Source: Planctomycetota bacterium
GTDB taxonomy: Bacteria > Planctomycetota > Phycisphaerae > SM23-33
Assembly (NCBI GenBank): GCA_024275995.1
Contig: JAJRYB010000044.1
Location: 13,041-77,040 of the forward strand
Reading direction: 5' to 3'
DNA: 64,000 nt
Below, piece by piece: positions 6,706-45,012 of this stretch. The position numbers and the translations under genes are program-made. The notes below the pieces were generated by a model. It did no database searches. It was not told the origin of the DNA and saw nothing but the letters and a program-made list of their open reading frames with translations. Each line of letters begins with the position of its first letter. The first letter of the stretch is position 1.

Positions 6706-6921
6706 CTATTTTTTCTTCTTGGCTGTTTTCTTCTTGGCCTTTTTCTTCGCCACTTTCTTCTTGGCCGGTTTCTTCTTCGCTACTTTCTTCTTCACGACCT
6801 TCTTCTTGGCGACCTTCTTCTTGACTACTTTCTTCTTGGCCGGTTTCTTCTTGGCGACCTTCTTCTTCACGACCTTCTTTTTCTTCGCGACTTTCTTCTT
6901 AGCTGCTTTCTTCTTCGCCAT
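6706..6921 (-). CDS. Histone H1-like lysine-rich protein (71 aa, 44 Lys, pentapeptide xxKKK repeats)
   Basis: Strong RBS (gaggaggtg) before the ATG; 15-bp periodic repeats; hairpin cccgctga/tcagcggg just after the stop. Confidence 0.8.
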   Translation of the reverse strand: MAKKKAAKKKVAKKKKVVKKKVAKKKPAKKKVVKKKVAKKKVVKKKVAKKKPAKKKVAKKKAKKKTAKKKK

Positions 6922-11283: not shown

Positions 11284-11331
11284 CATTTCAAATCTCAAAT
11301 CTGAAATTTCAAATCTCAAAGTTCCAATCTC
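11284..11331 (+). repeat. 7-bp tandem repeat array (AAATCTC / AAATCTG / AAATTTC / CAATCTC)
   Basis: aaatctc aaatctg aaatttc aaatctc aaagttc caatctc at 11290-11331, between ntpB and ntpD. Confidence 0.9.
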
Positions 11332-29121: not shown

Positions 29122-29163
29122 CGATTGACGATTTTCAATTGACGATCGTCAATTGTCAATCAT
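29122..29163 (+). repeat. 7-bp tandem repeat array (CGATTGA / CAATTGA / CGATCGT / CAATTGT)
   Basis: cgattga cgatttt caattga cgatcgt caattgt caatcat at the rimO-pgsA junction. Confidence 0.8.
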
Positions 29164-30570
29164 TCCGGCGATCAGGTCGTAATTATCGAAACCGACGATC
29201 TTCGCGCTCACAATCGAACCGATGGGTCCTGGTTCGGCGAGATAACACACCCCGTCGATCTCCGGGGCCTGTGCGAAAGTTCGTCCGACGCATCGTCCCT
29301 CGCCGTCCGTAGCGTCGATCAGCACTTGAACGCGCTCGCCGGCGGCTGCCTTCGCGGCGTTGGCGTCGAAGACGATCTTCTGCTGGGCGAGCATCAGTCG
29401 CTCGGCTCGCCGGGCCTTTACCTCGTCGGAAACGGCGCCGTCCAGCATCGCAGCCGGCGTACCTCCCTCCGGCGAATACTCGAACGCGCCCATCGCATCG
29501 AAGCGGAATTTTTCGACGAAGTCCAGCAGTTCGGCAAATTCCCCGTCGCTTTCGCCGGGAAAGCCCACGATGAACGTCGTGCGGATTGCGATGCGGGCGA
29601 TCCGGCTTCGCATTTTATCCAGCAGCGTTTCGATTTCGCTGCGGGTCGTTTGCCGCCCCATGCGCTTGAGCACGCCGTCCGAAATGTGCTGAAGCGGAAT
29701 GTCCACGTACGGAATGAGACGCTCGCATTCGGCGATCGTGTCGATCAGTTCGTCGTCGAAGCGGCGTGGGTAGGCGTACATCAGGCGAATCCATCGCGCG
29801 CCGTCCAGCGAGTCGAGCTGCCGCAGCAGGCGGGCGAGGTTCCATCCCCCGGGCAGGTCGCGTCCGTATCCGGTGGTGTCCTGGGCGATTATGTTCAGTT
29901 CGATTGCGCCGTCGGCTATCAGTTCGCGCGCCTCGTCGAGAATGAGATCGGGGCTTTTCGACCGGAACGGTCCGCGAATGGACGGGATTGTACAGAACGT
30001 GCATTTCTGCGAGCAGCCCTCGGAGATGCGAAGGTAGGCGGTGTGCCGCGGCGTCAGGCGAAACCTTCCGGCGTCAGAATGGATTTTGAATTTGAATTTG
30101 AAATTCGAAATTTGAGATTTCAGACCGTCGGTGTCGGATTTGAAATTTGAGATTTGAGATTTGAAATTTTCGGAAATATCGTCACATCGCGTGAATCTCG
30201 CGTTTCCGGTGACGGCTGCGAGTATTTCCGAGCGGTTGTTGACCCCGACGATCGCGTCGATTCCTTCCGCCTGTTCGTAGAGCGACGTTCCATCGCGGTT
30301 GACCACGCACCCGGCTACGACGACGCGCTTTGCCGAACCGCGGCGCTTGTATTCCAGCGCCTCGGCGAGGACGTCCATCGACTCGGCGCGGGCCGCTTCC
30401 ACGAAGCCGCACGTATTGATAACGATCACATCCGCTTCGTCCATAGGCGCGCCGACAACGCAGCCGCCCTCGGCGAGCATCGCAAGCATCCGCTCGCTGT
30501 CGATAAGGTTCTTCGAACAGCCCAGCGACACCAGGGCGACGCGCAGAGATTTTTCGGGGTCGGGTTCCAT
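29149..30570 (-). CDS. rimO: Ribosomal protein S12 methylthiotransferase, with a repeat-derived insertion
   Basis: SLGCSKNLIDSE, VINTCGF, VAGC, radical-SAM CSQKCTFC, TRAM ..GRTFAQAPEIDG. Alternative start 30597. Confidence 0.93.
   Translation of the reverse strand: MEPDPEKSLRVALVSLGCSKNLIDSERMLAMLAEGGCVVGAPMDEADVIVINTCGFVEAARAESMDVLAEALEYKRRGSAKRVVVAGCVVNRDGTSLYEQAEGIDAIVGVNNRSEILAAVTGNARFTRCDDISENFKSQISNFKSDTDGLKSQISNFKFKFKIHSDAGRFRLTPRHTAYLRISEGCSQKCTFCTIPSIRGPFRSKSPDLILDEARELIADGAIELNIIAQDTTGYGRDLPGGWNLARLLRQLDSLDGARWIRLMYAYPRRFDDELIDTIAECERLIPYVDIPLQHISDGVLKRMGRQTTRSEIETLLDKMRSRIARIAIRTTFIVGFPGESDGEFAELLDFVEKFRFDAMGAFEYSPEGGTPAAMLDGAVSDEVKARRAERLMLAQQKIVFDANAAKAAAGERVQVLIDATDGEGRCVGRTFAQAPEIDGVCYLAEPGPIGSIVSAKIVGFDNYDLIAGMIDN
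30083..30177 (-). repeat. 7-bp repeat array in-frame within rimO, encoding (KSQISNF)-type peptide
   Basis: Minus strand: aaatttc aaatctc aaatctc aaatttc aaatccg ... aaatctc aaatttc gaatttc aaattc aaattc. Confidence 0.9.
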
Positions 30571-33341: not shown

Positions 33342-36300
33342 ATGCCACGAAGGGATGACATTCACACGATCCTGATCATAGGTTCCGGCCCGATCATCAT
33401 CGGGCAGGGCTGCGAGTTCGATTATTCCGGTACGCAGGCGTGCAAGGCGCTGAGGGAAGAGGGCTACCGCGTTGTGCTGGTGAACTCCAACCCTGCTACC
33501 ATCATGACCGATCCGGAGTTTTCCGATCGTACGTACATCGAGCCGATCACGCCGGAGTGCGTCGCCAAGATCCTCCAGGCTGAATCGACCGGGCCGCATC
33601 CGATCGATGCGCTGCTTCCCACGCTTGGCGGCCAGACGGGCCTGAACACCGCCGTCGCCGTTGCCGATTCCGGCGTGCTGGATAAGTTCGGGGTGGAGAT
33701 GATCGGCGCTACGCGCGAGGTGATCCACCGGGCTGAGGATCGCACGGAATTCAAGAATATCTGCCTGTCGATAGGACTGGACGTGCCTCGCAGCGGGATT
33801 GCCCACACCATGGACGAGGCCCGGAAAATTATCCTGGACGTCGGGCTTCCCGTCTGCATACGGCCGGCCTACACGCTGGGCGGAACGGGCGGGGGGTTCG
33901 CCTTCAACCGCGACGAGTTCGAGGAAATCGTCGCGCGCGGGCTGGACTACTCACCCGTCAGCGAGGTCCTGATCGAGGAATCGGTGCTGGGCTGGAAGGA
34001 ATACGAGCTTGAGGTGATGCGCGACAAGGCGGACAACGTGGTGATAGTCTGCTCCATCGAGAACTTCGACCCGATGGGCGTGCACACGGGCGATTCGATT
34101 ACCGTCGCGCCCGCCCAGACGCTGACCGACAAGGAATACCAACTCATGCGCGACGCCGCCATCGCGATTATTCGCGCGATCGGCGTGGAGACCGGAGGCA
34201 GCAACATCCAGTTCGCCGTGGACCCGCAGACCGGGCGCATGATCGTGGTCGAGATGAATCCCCGAGTCTCACGAAGCAGCGCCCTGGCGTCCAAGGCGAC
34301 GGGTTTCCCCATCGCCAAGATAGCTGCAAAGCTCGCGGTGGGATATACGCTGGACGAAATACCCAACGACATCACGCGAGAGACGCCGGCCTGCTTCGAG
34401 CCGACAATCGATTACGTGGTGACGAAAATTCCACGCTGGACGTTCGAAAAATTCCCCGATGCCGACGAGACGCTCACCACGCAGATGAAATCGGTCGGCG
34501 AAGCGATGTCGATCGGACGGACCTTCAAGGAGAGTCTCCAGAAGGGCATCCGATCGATGGAAGTCAAGCGATACGGGCTTGGGTTGGACGGAAACGACAA
34601 GTGGCTGGTGAAGGATGCAGACTGGCCGATCGAAAAAACGAAACTGCACCGCAAGCTTTCCGTACCCTGCCAGGGACGCATCTATTACATCCGCTACGCC
34701 TTCAAGATGGGCTGGTCCGTCGAGCAGGTCTTCGAGCTGACCAAAATCGACCCCTGGTTCCTGACGCACCTGAAGGAACTGGTTGATTTCGAGACTTGCC
34801 TGGAAGAATTCAGCCGCCTTGGCGGCGTGCCGGAGGAGCTGCTCCGCAAGGCCAAGCAGCTTGGCTATTCGGACATCCAGCTTGGTCACATATGGAACGC
34901 CGGCCCCGATGACGTGCGAAAACGACGCAAGGAACTATCCATCGAGCCGGTCTACAAGCTCGTGGATACCTGTGCCGCGGAGTTCGAGGCCTATACGCCG
35001 TATTATTATTCCACTTACGAAAATCCGATCGCCCGGATCTCCGGAAGCGATTCGAAAAATCTCAAATCTCCAATCTCAAATCTCGAATCGTTTGTCGACG
35101 ACGAAATTCGAGTCAGCGACAAGAAAAAGATCGTCATCCTGGGTGGCGGCCCGAACCGGATAGGCCAGGGTATCGAGTTCGATTACTGCTGCGTGCACGC
35201 GGTCTTCGCCGCCAAGGAGCTTGGCTACGAGGCCGTCATGATCAACTCCAACCCGGAAACGGTCTCGACGGACTACGACACGTCCGACCTGCTGTTCTTC
35301 GAGCCGCTGACGCTCGAAGACGTGCTGAATATCTGCGAGAGACTCAACGGGCGACCGTTGGTTGCCAAATCTGAAATTTCCGATTCCGAATCTCGAATGG
35401 AGTCCGAAGGGCTTCTTCACGGCGTGATTGTCCAGTTTGGCGGACAGACGCCGCTGAACCTCGCACGCGGGCTGGAACAGGCGGGCGTTCCGATTATCGG
35501 CACTTCCCCGGAATCCATCGACCTGGCGGAGGATCGCAAGCGATTCGGCGAGGTGCTCGACGATCTGAAGCTCAAGTGCCCACAAGGCGGTACGGCGTTT
35601 TCCGTGGAACAGGCACGCGCCGTCGCCCAGCGGATCGGGTATCCCGTGCTGGTGAGGCCCAGTTACGTCCTGGGCGGCAGGGCGATGGAGATCGTCTCCG
35701 ACGAGCAGCAGCTCGACACGTACATGGCCCGCGCGGTGGACGCCTCGACAGTGGGGCGGGATCACCCGATACTCGTGGACAAGTTCCTTTCCGCCGCTAC
35801 GGAAGTGGACGTGGACTGCATCGCGGACTTCGGCCCGCGACCCGACGGTACGGACACTCCATCGCCCCGGGCGATCGTCTGTGGCGTAATGGAGCATATC
35901 GAGGAGGCGGGCATCCACTCCGGAGACAGCGCATGCGCGCTCCCGCCGTTTTCACTGTCGGAGGCCGTCGTCAAGGAGATTCAACGCCAGGCGAAGCTGC
36001 TGGCCGAGCGCTTGAAGGTGCGCGGGCTTATGAACGTGCAATTCGCCGTAAAAGACTCCGAGGTGTACATTCTCGAGGTCAACCCGCGAGCGTCGCGGAC
36101 CATTCCGTTCGTCTCCAAGGCCACCGGCGTTCCCTGGGCGAAACTCGCTGCGAAGGTAATGGCCGGGAAAAGCCTCGCGGAACTCGGCGTCGTCGAGGCG
36201 CCGCGACCGGCGCAGACCTCCGTCAAGGAAAGCGTTTTCCCGTTCACCAAGTTCCCCGGCGTCGACGTGATACTCGGTCCGGAGATGCGATCGACCGGCG

Positions 36301-36806
36301 AAGTGATGGGCGTCGACATGAGTTTCGCACTGGCGTTCGCCAAGGGACAGATAGCGACCGGTCTTGCCCTGCCCGTCGAGGGAACGGCGTTCCTGAGCGT
36401 TTGCGATGCGGATAAACGCCAGATCGTTCCCATCGCGCAGCGGTTGGCGGCTATGGGTTTCGAACTGTTCGCGACCACCGGCACGTATAACGTGCTTCAC
36501 GACGCGTCCATATGCGCGGTCAGGCTTCCCAAGCTTGCCGAAGGACGTCCCAACGTAGCCGACCTTATCACCAATAACGAGGTCGGTCTGATCATCAACA
36601 CCCCGACCCGACGCGGACCGACGAGCGACGAAGGAAAAATTCGTGCGATGGCAACGCTGCACCGCACGCCCATCATCACTACAATCACAGCCGCCAGTGC
36701 GGTAGTGGGCGCCATAGCGGCGCTGCGGGCCGCCGCAGGGGAAAATGTCTCTCCGCAGGACGCGTGGTCAGTCAAACCGCTCCAGGAATACTTTCCTCCC
36801 AATTGA
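33342..36806 (+). CDS. carB: Carbamoyl-phosphate synthase large subunit, with repeat-derived insertions
   Basis: [60 protein letters not shown]-terminal MGS domain. Confidence 0.97.
35057..35091 (+). repeat. 7-bp repeat array in-frame within carB (insertion 1)
   Basis: aaatctc aaatctc caatctc aaatctc gaatcgt, encoding [11 protein letters not shown]. Confidence 0.9.
35367..35401 (+). repeat. Degenerate 7-bp repeat array in-frame within carB (insertion 2)
   Basis: aaatctg aaatttc cgattcc gaatctc gaatgga, encoding [12 protein letters not shown]. Confidence 0.75.
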
Positions 36807-36834
36807 CAATCGCCGATCGCCAATCGACAATTAC
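36800..36834 (+). repeat. 7-bp tandem repeat array overlapping the carB stop
   Basis: caattga caatcgc cgatcgc caatcga caattac. Confidence 0.8.
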
Positions 36835-44955: not shown

Positions 44956-44963
44956 AAGCAGGT

Positions 44964-45012
44964 TTCAGACTTCAGGCTTCAGACTTCAGGCTTCAGACTT
45001 CAGGCTTCAGGC
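44964..45012. repeat. 7-bp tandem repeat, 7 copies (TTCAGAC / TTCAGGC)
   Basis: ttcagac ttcaggc ttcagac ttcaggc ttcagac ttcaggc ttcaggc between convergent stop codons. Confidence 0.95.

Follow-up and report, generated by a model that had tools for sequence, protein, structure and literature searches.

A translated heptanucleotide repeat at a domain boundary of carbamoyl-phosphate synthase in a Phycisphaerae bacterium, probably a tolerated passenger

In a planctomycete of the class Phycisphaerae, the carB gene for the large subunit of carbamoyl-phosphate synthase (CPS) contains five tandem heptanucleotide units that are read in frame into the protein. The gene lies in a 64,000-nucleotide stretch of contig JAJRYB010000044.1, which we call the window, and we analyzed it together with the rest of the source genome and with CarB sequences from relatives. 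We conclude that the array, named insertion 1 here, is probably a translated but neutral heptanucleotide repeat sitting in a permissive loop of the enzyme, one copy of a genome-wide family, and that it has been resized in steps of 21 bp. Comparison of the sequences suggests that it has no function of its own and shows that its unit follows the repeat flavor of the genome it sits in, not a constraint at the level of the protein.

A heptamer array is read through carB

The carB gene is intact. Its product matched NCBIfam model NF003671 over residues 1-1129 with 1619.6 bits (cut-off 599) and TIGR01369 with 1423.9 bits (cut-off 1027), and a phmmer search aligned residues 1-1134 with residues 1-1060 of Escherichia coli CPS (1bxr_A; E = 0). 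The domain set is colinear with that of the E. coli enzyme, comprising two ATP-grasp halves, an oligomerisation domain and an MGS-like allosteric domain; the precomputed Pfam assignments include PF25596, PF02786, PF02787 and PF02142. The source genome, which is 97% complete, yielded a single CarB match.

Insertion 1 consists of three exact AAATCTC units, one CAATCTC and a terminal GAATCGT (Table 1), read as gat tcg aaa AAT CTC AAA TCT CCA ATC TCA AAT CTC GAA TCG ttt gtc gac. Tandem Repeats Finder (TRF) reported the tract at 35057-35089 with period 7, 4.7 copies, 88% matches and a score of 52. The dimer AAATCTCAAATCTC, allowing up to 2 mismatches, was found 13 times in the window against an expectation of 0.55 (100 dinucleotide shuffles, of which the largest count was 3). 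The heptamer units that a first-pass annotation of this DNA had listed for this tract are present where it placed them, and the CarB peptide it quoted is exact. The tract has a GC content of 33% and a GC content at third codon positions (GC3) of 33%, compared with 60% and 77% for the carB gene, and so has the look of repeat DNA that has not been shaped by carB codon usage. It is flanked by an 11-nt imperfect inverted repeat, AAGCGATTCGA and TCGAATCGTTT, that may have arisen by chance or may be what is left of a hairpin arm. A hairpin or other RNA structure formed by insertion 1 was ruled out as significant by a fold z-score of -1.0.

Tandem repeats are a recognized source of assembly errors, according to one published study (PMC6868369), and the sequence comes from a metagenome-assembled genome (MAG). 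It is nevertheless scarcely credible that the tract is an assembly artefact or a chimera: it preserves the reading frame of a gene that is otherwise intact, it is 35 bp long and thus shorter than any read, and independent assemblies from other samples carry arrays at the same codon position.

Alignment with 1bxr_A showed that the spacer between the YSTYE and GGGPNRIG motifs is 40 residues long here and 17 in E. coli CarB, a difference of 23 residues. In E. coli numbering the alignment gap is bounded by residues 553 and 556, placing the junction at about A553/N554. In 1997, Thoden et al. are said to have assigned residues 404-553 of E. coli CPS to the oligomerisation domain and residues 554-936 to the carbamoyl-phosphate synthetic component. 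We take insertion 1 to mark the point at which the former ends and the latter, the second ATP-grasp half, begins. These results agree with the earlier proposal of a heptamer-derived insertion adding some 20 residues at a CarB domain boundary.

An AlphaFold2 model of CarB, built from 89 homologues, had a predicted TM-score of 0.87 and a mean predicted local distance difference test (pLDDT) score of 82. Residues 569-580, in the repeat-encoded peptide, scored below 50 and had no secondary structure, and residues 682-687, within a second insertion described below, also scored below 50. Insertion 1 is thus predicted to contribute about 12 hydrophilic residues as a disordered extension of the interdomain linker.

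The same heptamer family is found throughout the genome

The source genome, G000, comprises 2.64 Mb in 134 contigs with 59.9% GC. It contains 94 runs of at least two AAATCTC-family units, compared with 4-8 in shuffled genomes, and these group into approximately 84 loci. Seven is its most common tandem-repeat period, represented by 58 of the 182 arrays with at least 3 copies and ranking above periods 9 and 6. According to our own simple gene caller (2164 genes, 86.5% coding, about 13.5% intergenic), 49 of the 62 period-7 arrays are intergenic and 8 lie within genes.

Family members in frame were also identified, with the help of NCBIfam, in rimO, alaS, valS and a four-helix-bundle gene. The alaS copy (C15:15472-15531) encodes the peptide SNPESQISNFKSENPKSEIRNSES and folds as a hairpin at -35 kcal/mol, the rimO copies fold at -27 kcal/mol, and the valS copy lies at C89:12382-12428. 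AAATCTC was on the sense strand in all 7 of the clear in-gene arrays, and the intergenic arrays in this genome showed no orientation bias relative to the flanking genes. The sequence (AAATCTC)n is free of stop codons in all frames. Its complement, (GAGATTT)n, runs into a TGA within 21 nt whichever frame is read, which explains why the clear in-gene arrays are all AAATCTC-sense. Loss of mismatch repair was considered as a cause of the spread of these repeats and rejected: both MutS (960 bits) and MutL (554 bits) are intact, and the repeats are therefore not a by-product of repair loss.

Part of the longer spacer is class-wide, and length differences come in 21-bp steps

To place insertion 1 among its relatives we used CarB sequences from the relatives' genomes together with 119 proteins from a homologous-protein search, 115 of the class sequences being full length. 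The baseline spacer in Phycisphaerae CarBs is 27-33 amino acids (aa) long, and essentially all of them share a conserved extension, TPIxR...FVDDEVRVSDKKK (the F-V-D-D-E-V-R-V-S-D-K-K-K motif). The lineage-specific gain is therefore 7-13 residues. The idea that all of the roughly 20 extra residues were heptamer-derived holds in part: about 12 of the 23 (K572-S583) are encoded by the repeat, and the remainder belong to the class-wide extension.

Such a long conserved spacer raises the question of whether the extra residues make up a selected, longer and flexible linker peculiar to Phycisphaerae CPS. We regard this as very unlikely, since the repeat-encoded part is hypervariable and is missing from close relatives, is made of AT-rich codons, which the gene disfavors, and yields a peptide that tracks the DNA repeat unit and not any pattern of residues.

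In the closest CarBs the array is either absent or limited to 2 units; no protein more than 77% identical across the loop region was found in the homologous-protein database search. The closest genome without an insert, G024 (CarB P0041), has a loop that reads ...DEDGNAQPFTDDE. P0006, the nearest relative, carries just two units (AATCCGA AATCCTT), and its DNA aligned with this carB with a single clean gap of 21 bp, the length of three units and of seven codons. P0014 and P0045, which belong to another clade, share about 92% DNA identity, and P0045 is longer by 21 residues (63 bp); the loop in this pair is built of a 21-bp unit present in 4.2 copies (TRF) that itself consists of three degenerate heptamers. 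The 21-bp gap in P0006 and the 63-bp difference between P0014 and P0045 give a positive answer to the question, raised in the first-pass annotation, of whether insertion lengths step by 21 bp.

The last unit of insertion 1 seems to be older than the others. G037 (locus L014), a relative at the level of the class whose genome is complete, has GGC GAA TCG TTT GTC GAT at this position, with the same GAATCGTTTGTCGA that makes up the 3' end of the array here, and no array. Because G037 shares this sequence, we read the last unit as ancestral, unit-like coding sequence (E/S-F codons), and the ancestral GAATCG codons could have served as a seed for the array.

A repeat with a unit length not divisible by three, located inside an open reading frame (ORF), is the classical architecture of a contingency locus, and the site is at the boundary between two homologous halves. 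Slippage by one unit might accordingly switch carB off and on or split the gene into its halves. We give this possibility hardly any credence, as carB is a single-copy biosynthetic gene, none of about 150 homologues is frameshifted at the site and the observed length differences come in steps of 21 bp.

Two CarB loops carry arrays with genome-specific units across the class

Heptamer-type peptides are present at the site of insertion 1 (loop 1) in 30 of the 115 full-length Phycisphaerae CarBs. Mapped on a tree built without the loops, the loop-1 arrays have been gained or lost at least 16 times, and the members of four well-supported sister pairs (P0008/P0018, P0047/P0092, P0010/P0031 and P0069/P0103) differ from each other in loop 1. 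A second loop, loop 2, shows the same pattern of turnover.

Examples of loop-1 peptides are NPKSEIRNPKS, from AAATCCG, NPQSAIRNPQF, from CAATCCG, and NLKSEI...; another, NRQSPIVNRQF, points to a CAATCGN-type unit. The 7-bp period was intact in all of the loop arrays for which we had DNA at hand. A peptide conserved across distant taxa in which synonymous divergence had erased the period, the outcome envisaged as speaking against a repeat origin, is therefore not what we found: peptides do recur, but the period is intact and the unit is specific to the genome.

The match between the CarB array and its own genome was seen in several cases. Exact AAATCTC dimers number 15 in G000 and 0 in G004, exact AAATCCG dimers 5 in G000 and 125 in G004, and the loop-1 array is AAATCTC in G000 and AAATCCG / AAATTCG in G004. 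In G006, which has CGACCTT x3 as its CarB array, CGACCTT dimers were matched 24 times (allowing up to 1 mismatch); the other genomes searched gave 0-4 matches. The CGACCTT unit is unrelated to AAATCNN, as are two others found in loop 1, CCTGGGA x4 in G007 and a GCAATCG-like unit in G027, a genome that carries AAATCCC arrays. The five-unit array of P0005 has the length and position of insertion 1 with the units AATCCGA/AATCCAA in place of AATCTCA/AATCTCC. The units can also change quickly: the P0014 and P0015 genes are about 91% identical and have different units at the same loop-1 site. Such sisters, along with the 16 or more changes on the tree, rule out a single ancient insertion followed by slow divergence.

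As a control set we took 80 CarB loci among the matches listed, nearly all of them from other phyla. Period-7 arrays occurred in their flanks, and inside carB we saw them only in a MAG of the Tepidisphaeraceae, which are Phycisphaerae, and in one weak case.

Recurrence at two inter-domain or sub-domain loops of CarB in many lineages might indicate a role at the level of nucleic acid, for instance as the target of a protein that recognizes heptamers in single-stranded form, or by making translation pause at the domain boundary and so helping the two halves to fold. Cold-shock proteins are able to bind direct repeats of heptamers (for a review, see PMC4679880). We consider such a role very unlikely all the same. 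The array is missing from the nearest relatives, the units are wholly different between genomes (AAATCTC, CGACCTT, CCTGGGA), the same family occurs in unrelated genes and in intergenic copies without orientation bias, and the array in loop 2 of this gene is decaying.

Several further observations were made on these loci. In P0015, carB contains two near-perfect arrays in opposite orientations about 510 bp apart, ATTGCGG x4.6 (L117:4262-4293) and CAATCCG x4.6 (L117:4803-4834), one in a loop near residue 421 and the other in loop 1. Palindromic elements resembling repetitive extragenic palindromic (REP) sequences lie in frame in loop 1 of L028 and in loops 1 and 2 of P0037, P0113, P0018, P0028, P0059, P0079, P0087 and P0112, giving peptides such as ...GVSPV...HGRDAHAT... 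and ...EKGDRHRETAAEPVPVF...; because relatives carry these elements there too, the CarB loops can be said to collect several kinds of repeat DNA. In loop 2, where 23-24 residues are usual, P0076 has a 148-residue segment of no obvious repeat character in their place, which might be an inserted domain. G024 gave 1 match to AATCNNNAATCNNNAATC and 57 to the reversed control pattern, (CTAANNN)x2-CTAA, and apparently possesses a separate heptamer family. Finally, the carB orthologue L006 (G018:C96:10954-14373) is full length except for one in-frame TAA.

Possible origins of the array

Insertion 1 can be tolerated because it lies on the stop-free strand, differs in length from P0006 by exactly three units and occupies a permissive loop that is hypervariable throughout the class. 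An array of this kind would start on a pre-existing unit-like seed, for which GAATCG in the E/S-F codons and GAAATCTC are candidates. It might then grow by replication slippage, by template switching onto other arrays, or by insertion of a heptamer-armed hairpin with subsequent loss of the stop-bearing arm. Later resizing would be by slippage, with three-unit changes alone surviving selection. The arrays would have passed through three selective filters: a stop-free orientation, a net length that is a multiple of three, and location in a loop.

Slippage explains the 21-bp steps and the array of G007. Three other findings, namely the match to the unit of the host genome, the speed with which units are exchanged between close relatives and a hairpin found in P0120, point to copying from other arrays, by template switching or conversion, or to insertion of a heptamer-armed element that later lost its stop-bearing arm. 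This hairpin occupies exactly the same loop (loop 1; L119:3858-3990) and is complete, with the structure (GATTGCG)x5, spacer, (CGCAATC)x4-5 and a folding energy of -83.7 kcal/mol, and it is translated in frame as PIADCGLRIAEPGALPEPSDRLGSGNPQSAIRNPQF.

Insertion 1 could on these grounds be the surviving arm of a mobile, heptamer-armed hairpin element, similar to a miniature inverted-repeat transposable element (MITE) or a Rickettsia palindromic element (RPE), that has lost its GAGATTT arm and in which slippage has been secondary. This idea concerns origin only and is compatible with insertion 1 being a neutral passenger. It also draws support from the 10 of 84 family loci in G000 at which both strands carry arrays no more than 150 bp apart, from the folding of the alaS and rimO copies, from the different units of P0014 and P0015 at one site and from the 11-nt inverted repeat around insertion 1. 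We think it possible but on balance doubtful. Insertion 1 itself is a plain direct array without significant folding, and no target-site duplication, terminal inverted repeats or transposase was found; slippage alone explains the three-unit difference from P0006, and the CCTGGGA array of G007 is local.

A number of observations sit less comfortably with our view of insertion 1 as a neutral copy of a genome-wide family. Recurrence at the same loop, and a five-unit length shared by three distant genera (in this genome, in P0005 and in G004), could reflect a targeted or functional process in place of simple tolerance. Slippage in situ from a GAATCG seed alone would not yield AAATCTC units. The CCTGGGA array of G007 is nearly unique to carB and not part of a genome-wide family, and since it is nearly confined to this gene it looks like a local expansion, implying more than one route of origin. 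The division of arrays into coding and intergenic depends, moreover, on our own crude gene caller. We also rejected the stronger proposition that every CarB-loop array was copied from a genome-wide family, as it fails for G007 and the match in G027 is merely approximate.

A more speculative and rather improbable extension of the neutral reading is that an active process with a 7-nt unit continually rewrites the coding arrays and keeps every array, those within essential genes among them, matched to the current unit of the genome. Candidate processes would be gene conversion, template switching among arrays, or a putative enzyme that may lay down or mobilize heptamer-armed hairpins. In that event the linker loop of CarB would serve throughout the Phycisphaerae as a conserved landing pad, and orthologous CarB arrays would form a natural time series on why bacteria make heptamer repeats.

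Other repeats in the window

The features discussed are listed in Table 1. Insertion 2, in loop 2 of carB, shares 81% identity with insertion 1 across 32 nt, and the loop is 36 aa long here compared with a clade baseline of 23-24 aa. At the same position P0002 has a clean AAATCCG array of 4.6 copies (TRF). Because of its identity with insertion 1 and this clean counterpart, we take insertion 2 to have arisen earlier by the same process and to be in decay. The end of carB is overlapped by a third array: the stop codon TGA (36804-36806) falls within its first unit, so that the CarB C terminus ends inside the repeat.

Two repeats in the window are of other kinds. The CAGGCTT/CAGACTT array has a near counterpart on a metagenome contig from another Phycisphaerae lineage (L117:2739-2791), where AGGCTTC x7.6, nearly the same unit, lies upstream of carB. 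The repeat at 6712-6920 would encode, on the minus strand, a segment of a Lys/Ala-rich repeat protein.

Table 1. Positions in the window of carB and of the repeats described in the text
Feature	Position	Strand	Description and basis
carB, CPS large subunit	33342-36806	+	1154 aa, intact; ORF, NCBIfam, PDB match
Insertion 1	35057-35091	+	In frame in carB; AAATCTC 35057-35063, AAATCTC 35064-35070, CAATCTC 35071-35077, AAATCTC 35078-35084, GAATCGT 35085-35091
Codons K572-S583	35055-35090	+	Repeat-encoded peptide; translation; predicted disordered coil
11-nt imperfect inverted repeat	35045-35093	.	Flanks insertion 1; repeat search, 91% complementary
Insertion 2	35367-35401	+	In frame, second carB loop; degenerate heptamers AAATCTG, AAATTTC, CGATTCC, GAATCTC, GAATGGA
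Third array	36799-36831	+	CAATTGA, CAATCGC, CGATCGC, CAATCGA, CAATTAC; TRF period 7, 4.7 copies
Two same-family arrays in rimO	30085-30169	-	In frame in rimO (29149-30570, -; RimO TIGR01125, 446 bits); peptide ...ENFKSQISNFKSDTDGLKSQISNFKFKFK...
Same-family intergenic array	11288-11331	+	Between two minus-strand genes; TRF, own gene calls
CAGGCTT/CAGACTT array	44959-45012		Different heptamer, 7.7 copies, intergenic
15-bp and 45-bp periods	6712-6920		TTTCTTCTTGGCSNC, about 14 copies

Significance and comparison with known repeat systems

In many bacteria no class of long simple repeat is more abundant than the heptanucleotide one, and the cause of the 7-nt period, their origin and their spread have never been settled. 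The CarB loops provide an orthologous, frame-constrained reporter locus at which comparative genomics or amplicon sequencing can distinguish slippage from gene conversion and from element insertion, and the carB arrays show how far junk peptide is tolerated at a domain boundary of an essential multidomain enzyme. They also carry a warning for annotation: low-complexity peptides like NLKSQIS, NPKSEIR and NPQSAIR, when met in Planctomycetota proteins, represent translated repeat DNA and should not be read as protein motifs. Our literature search found no paper on heptamer repeats in Planctomycetota.

Long simple sequence repeats (LSSRs) with heptanucleotide units were described by Mrazek, Guo and Shah in 2007 as over-represented, mostly intergenic and phylogenetically scattered, and were attributed to polymerase slippage; repeats within genes mostly had units divisible by three (both points as relayed in PMC4679880 and PMC4692102). 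The family described here has the marks of LSSRs, with head-to-tail units in the 5-11 nt size range beyond chance expectation, 7 as the most frequent period, a mainly intergenic location and length changes by whole units. It differs in that single-copy housekeeping genes (carB, alaS, valS and rimO) are translated straight through a 7-nt repeat, and in its recurrence at one loop across a class with genome-specific units.

The TAACTGA direct repeats of marine Beggiatoaceae, cyanobacteria and Bacteroidetes occur in sets mainly just upstream of start codons and in one orientation (MacGregor 2015, PMC4679880). Like the repeats in G000, they are spread genome-wide in groups of 2-6 heptamer copies, with one orientation rich in stops and the other translatable, they differ between strains by 7-nt increments and a set is occasionally found inside an ORF (PMC4679880). 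Unlike them, the family here has the unit AAATCTC, intergenic arrays without orientation bias and in-gene copies in essential enzymes; given this unit and the inconsistent intergenic orientation, we do not count it as a member of the TAACTGA family.

The GGGAATC / GGGGAYT heptamers of Xanthomonas and Nostoc are enriched between genes, form inverted pairs and have variable numbers of copies (Rehm et al. 2015, PMC4692102). Their units have a similar shape, since the complements of AAATCCC and AAATCCG are GGGATTT and CGGATTT. The complement in our genome, GAGATTT, has no G-tract, which places it outside the G-quadruplex-forming GGGNATC class with its G-tract of at least 3 per unit.

RPEs and intragenic MITEs are noncoding repeat DNA that has come to lie in frame in unrelated metabolic and housekeeping genes, where it encodes a peptide compatible with the fold; RPEs are palindromic, are about 150 bp long and specify a conserved peptide (PMC10969869). 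The heptamer arrays resemble them in lying in frame in unrelated housekeeping genes (carB, rimO, alaS and valS), in carB within a loop predicted to be disordered. Insertion 1 differs as a 35-bp direct array without a significant hairpin, the hairpin form being confined to some relatives such as P0120, and with its imperfect 11-nt inverted repeat as the only palindromic feature it does not qualify as an RPE or MITE palindrome with terminal inverted repeats. The abundance of heptanucleotide repeats in bacteria and the presence of in-frame repeat elements in housekeeping genes, as in RPEs, are thus already known. What is new is their combination: a non-triplet unit read through essential genes, returning to two loops across a class, and built each time of the genome's own unit.

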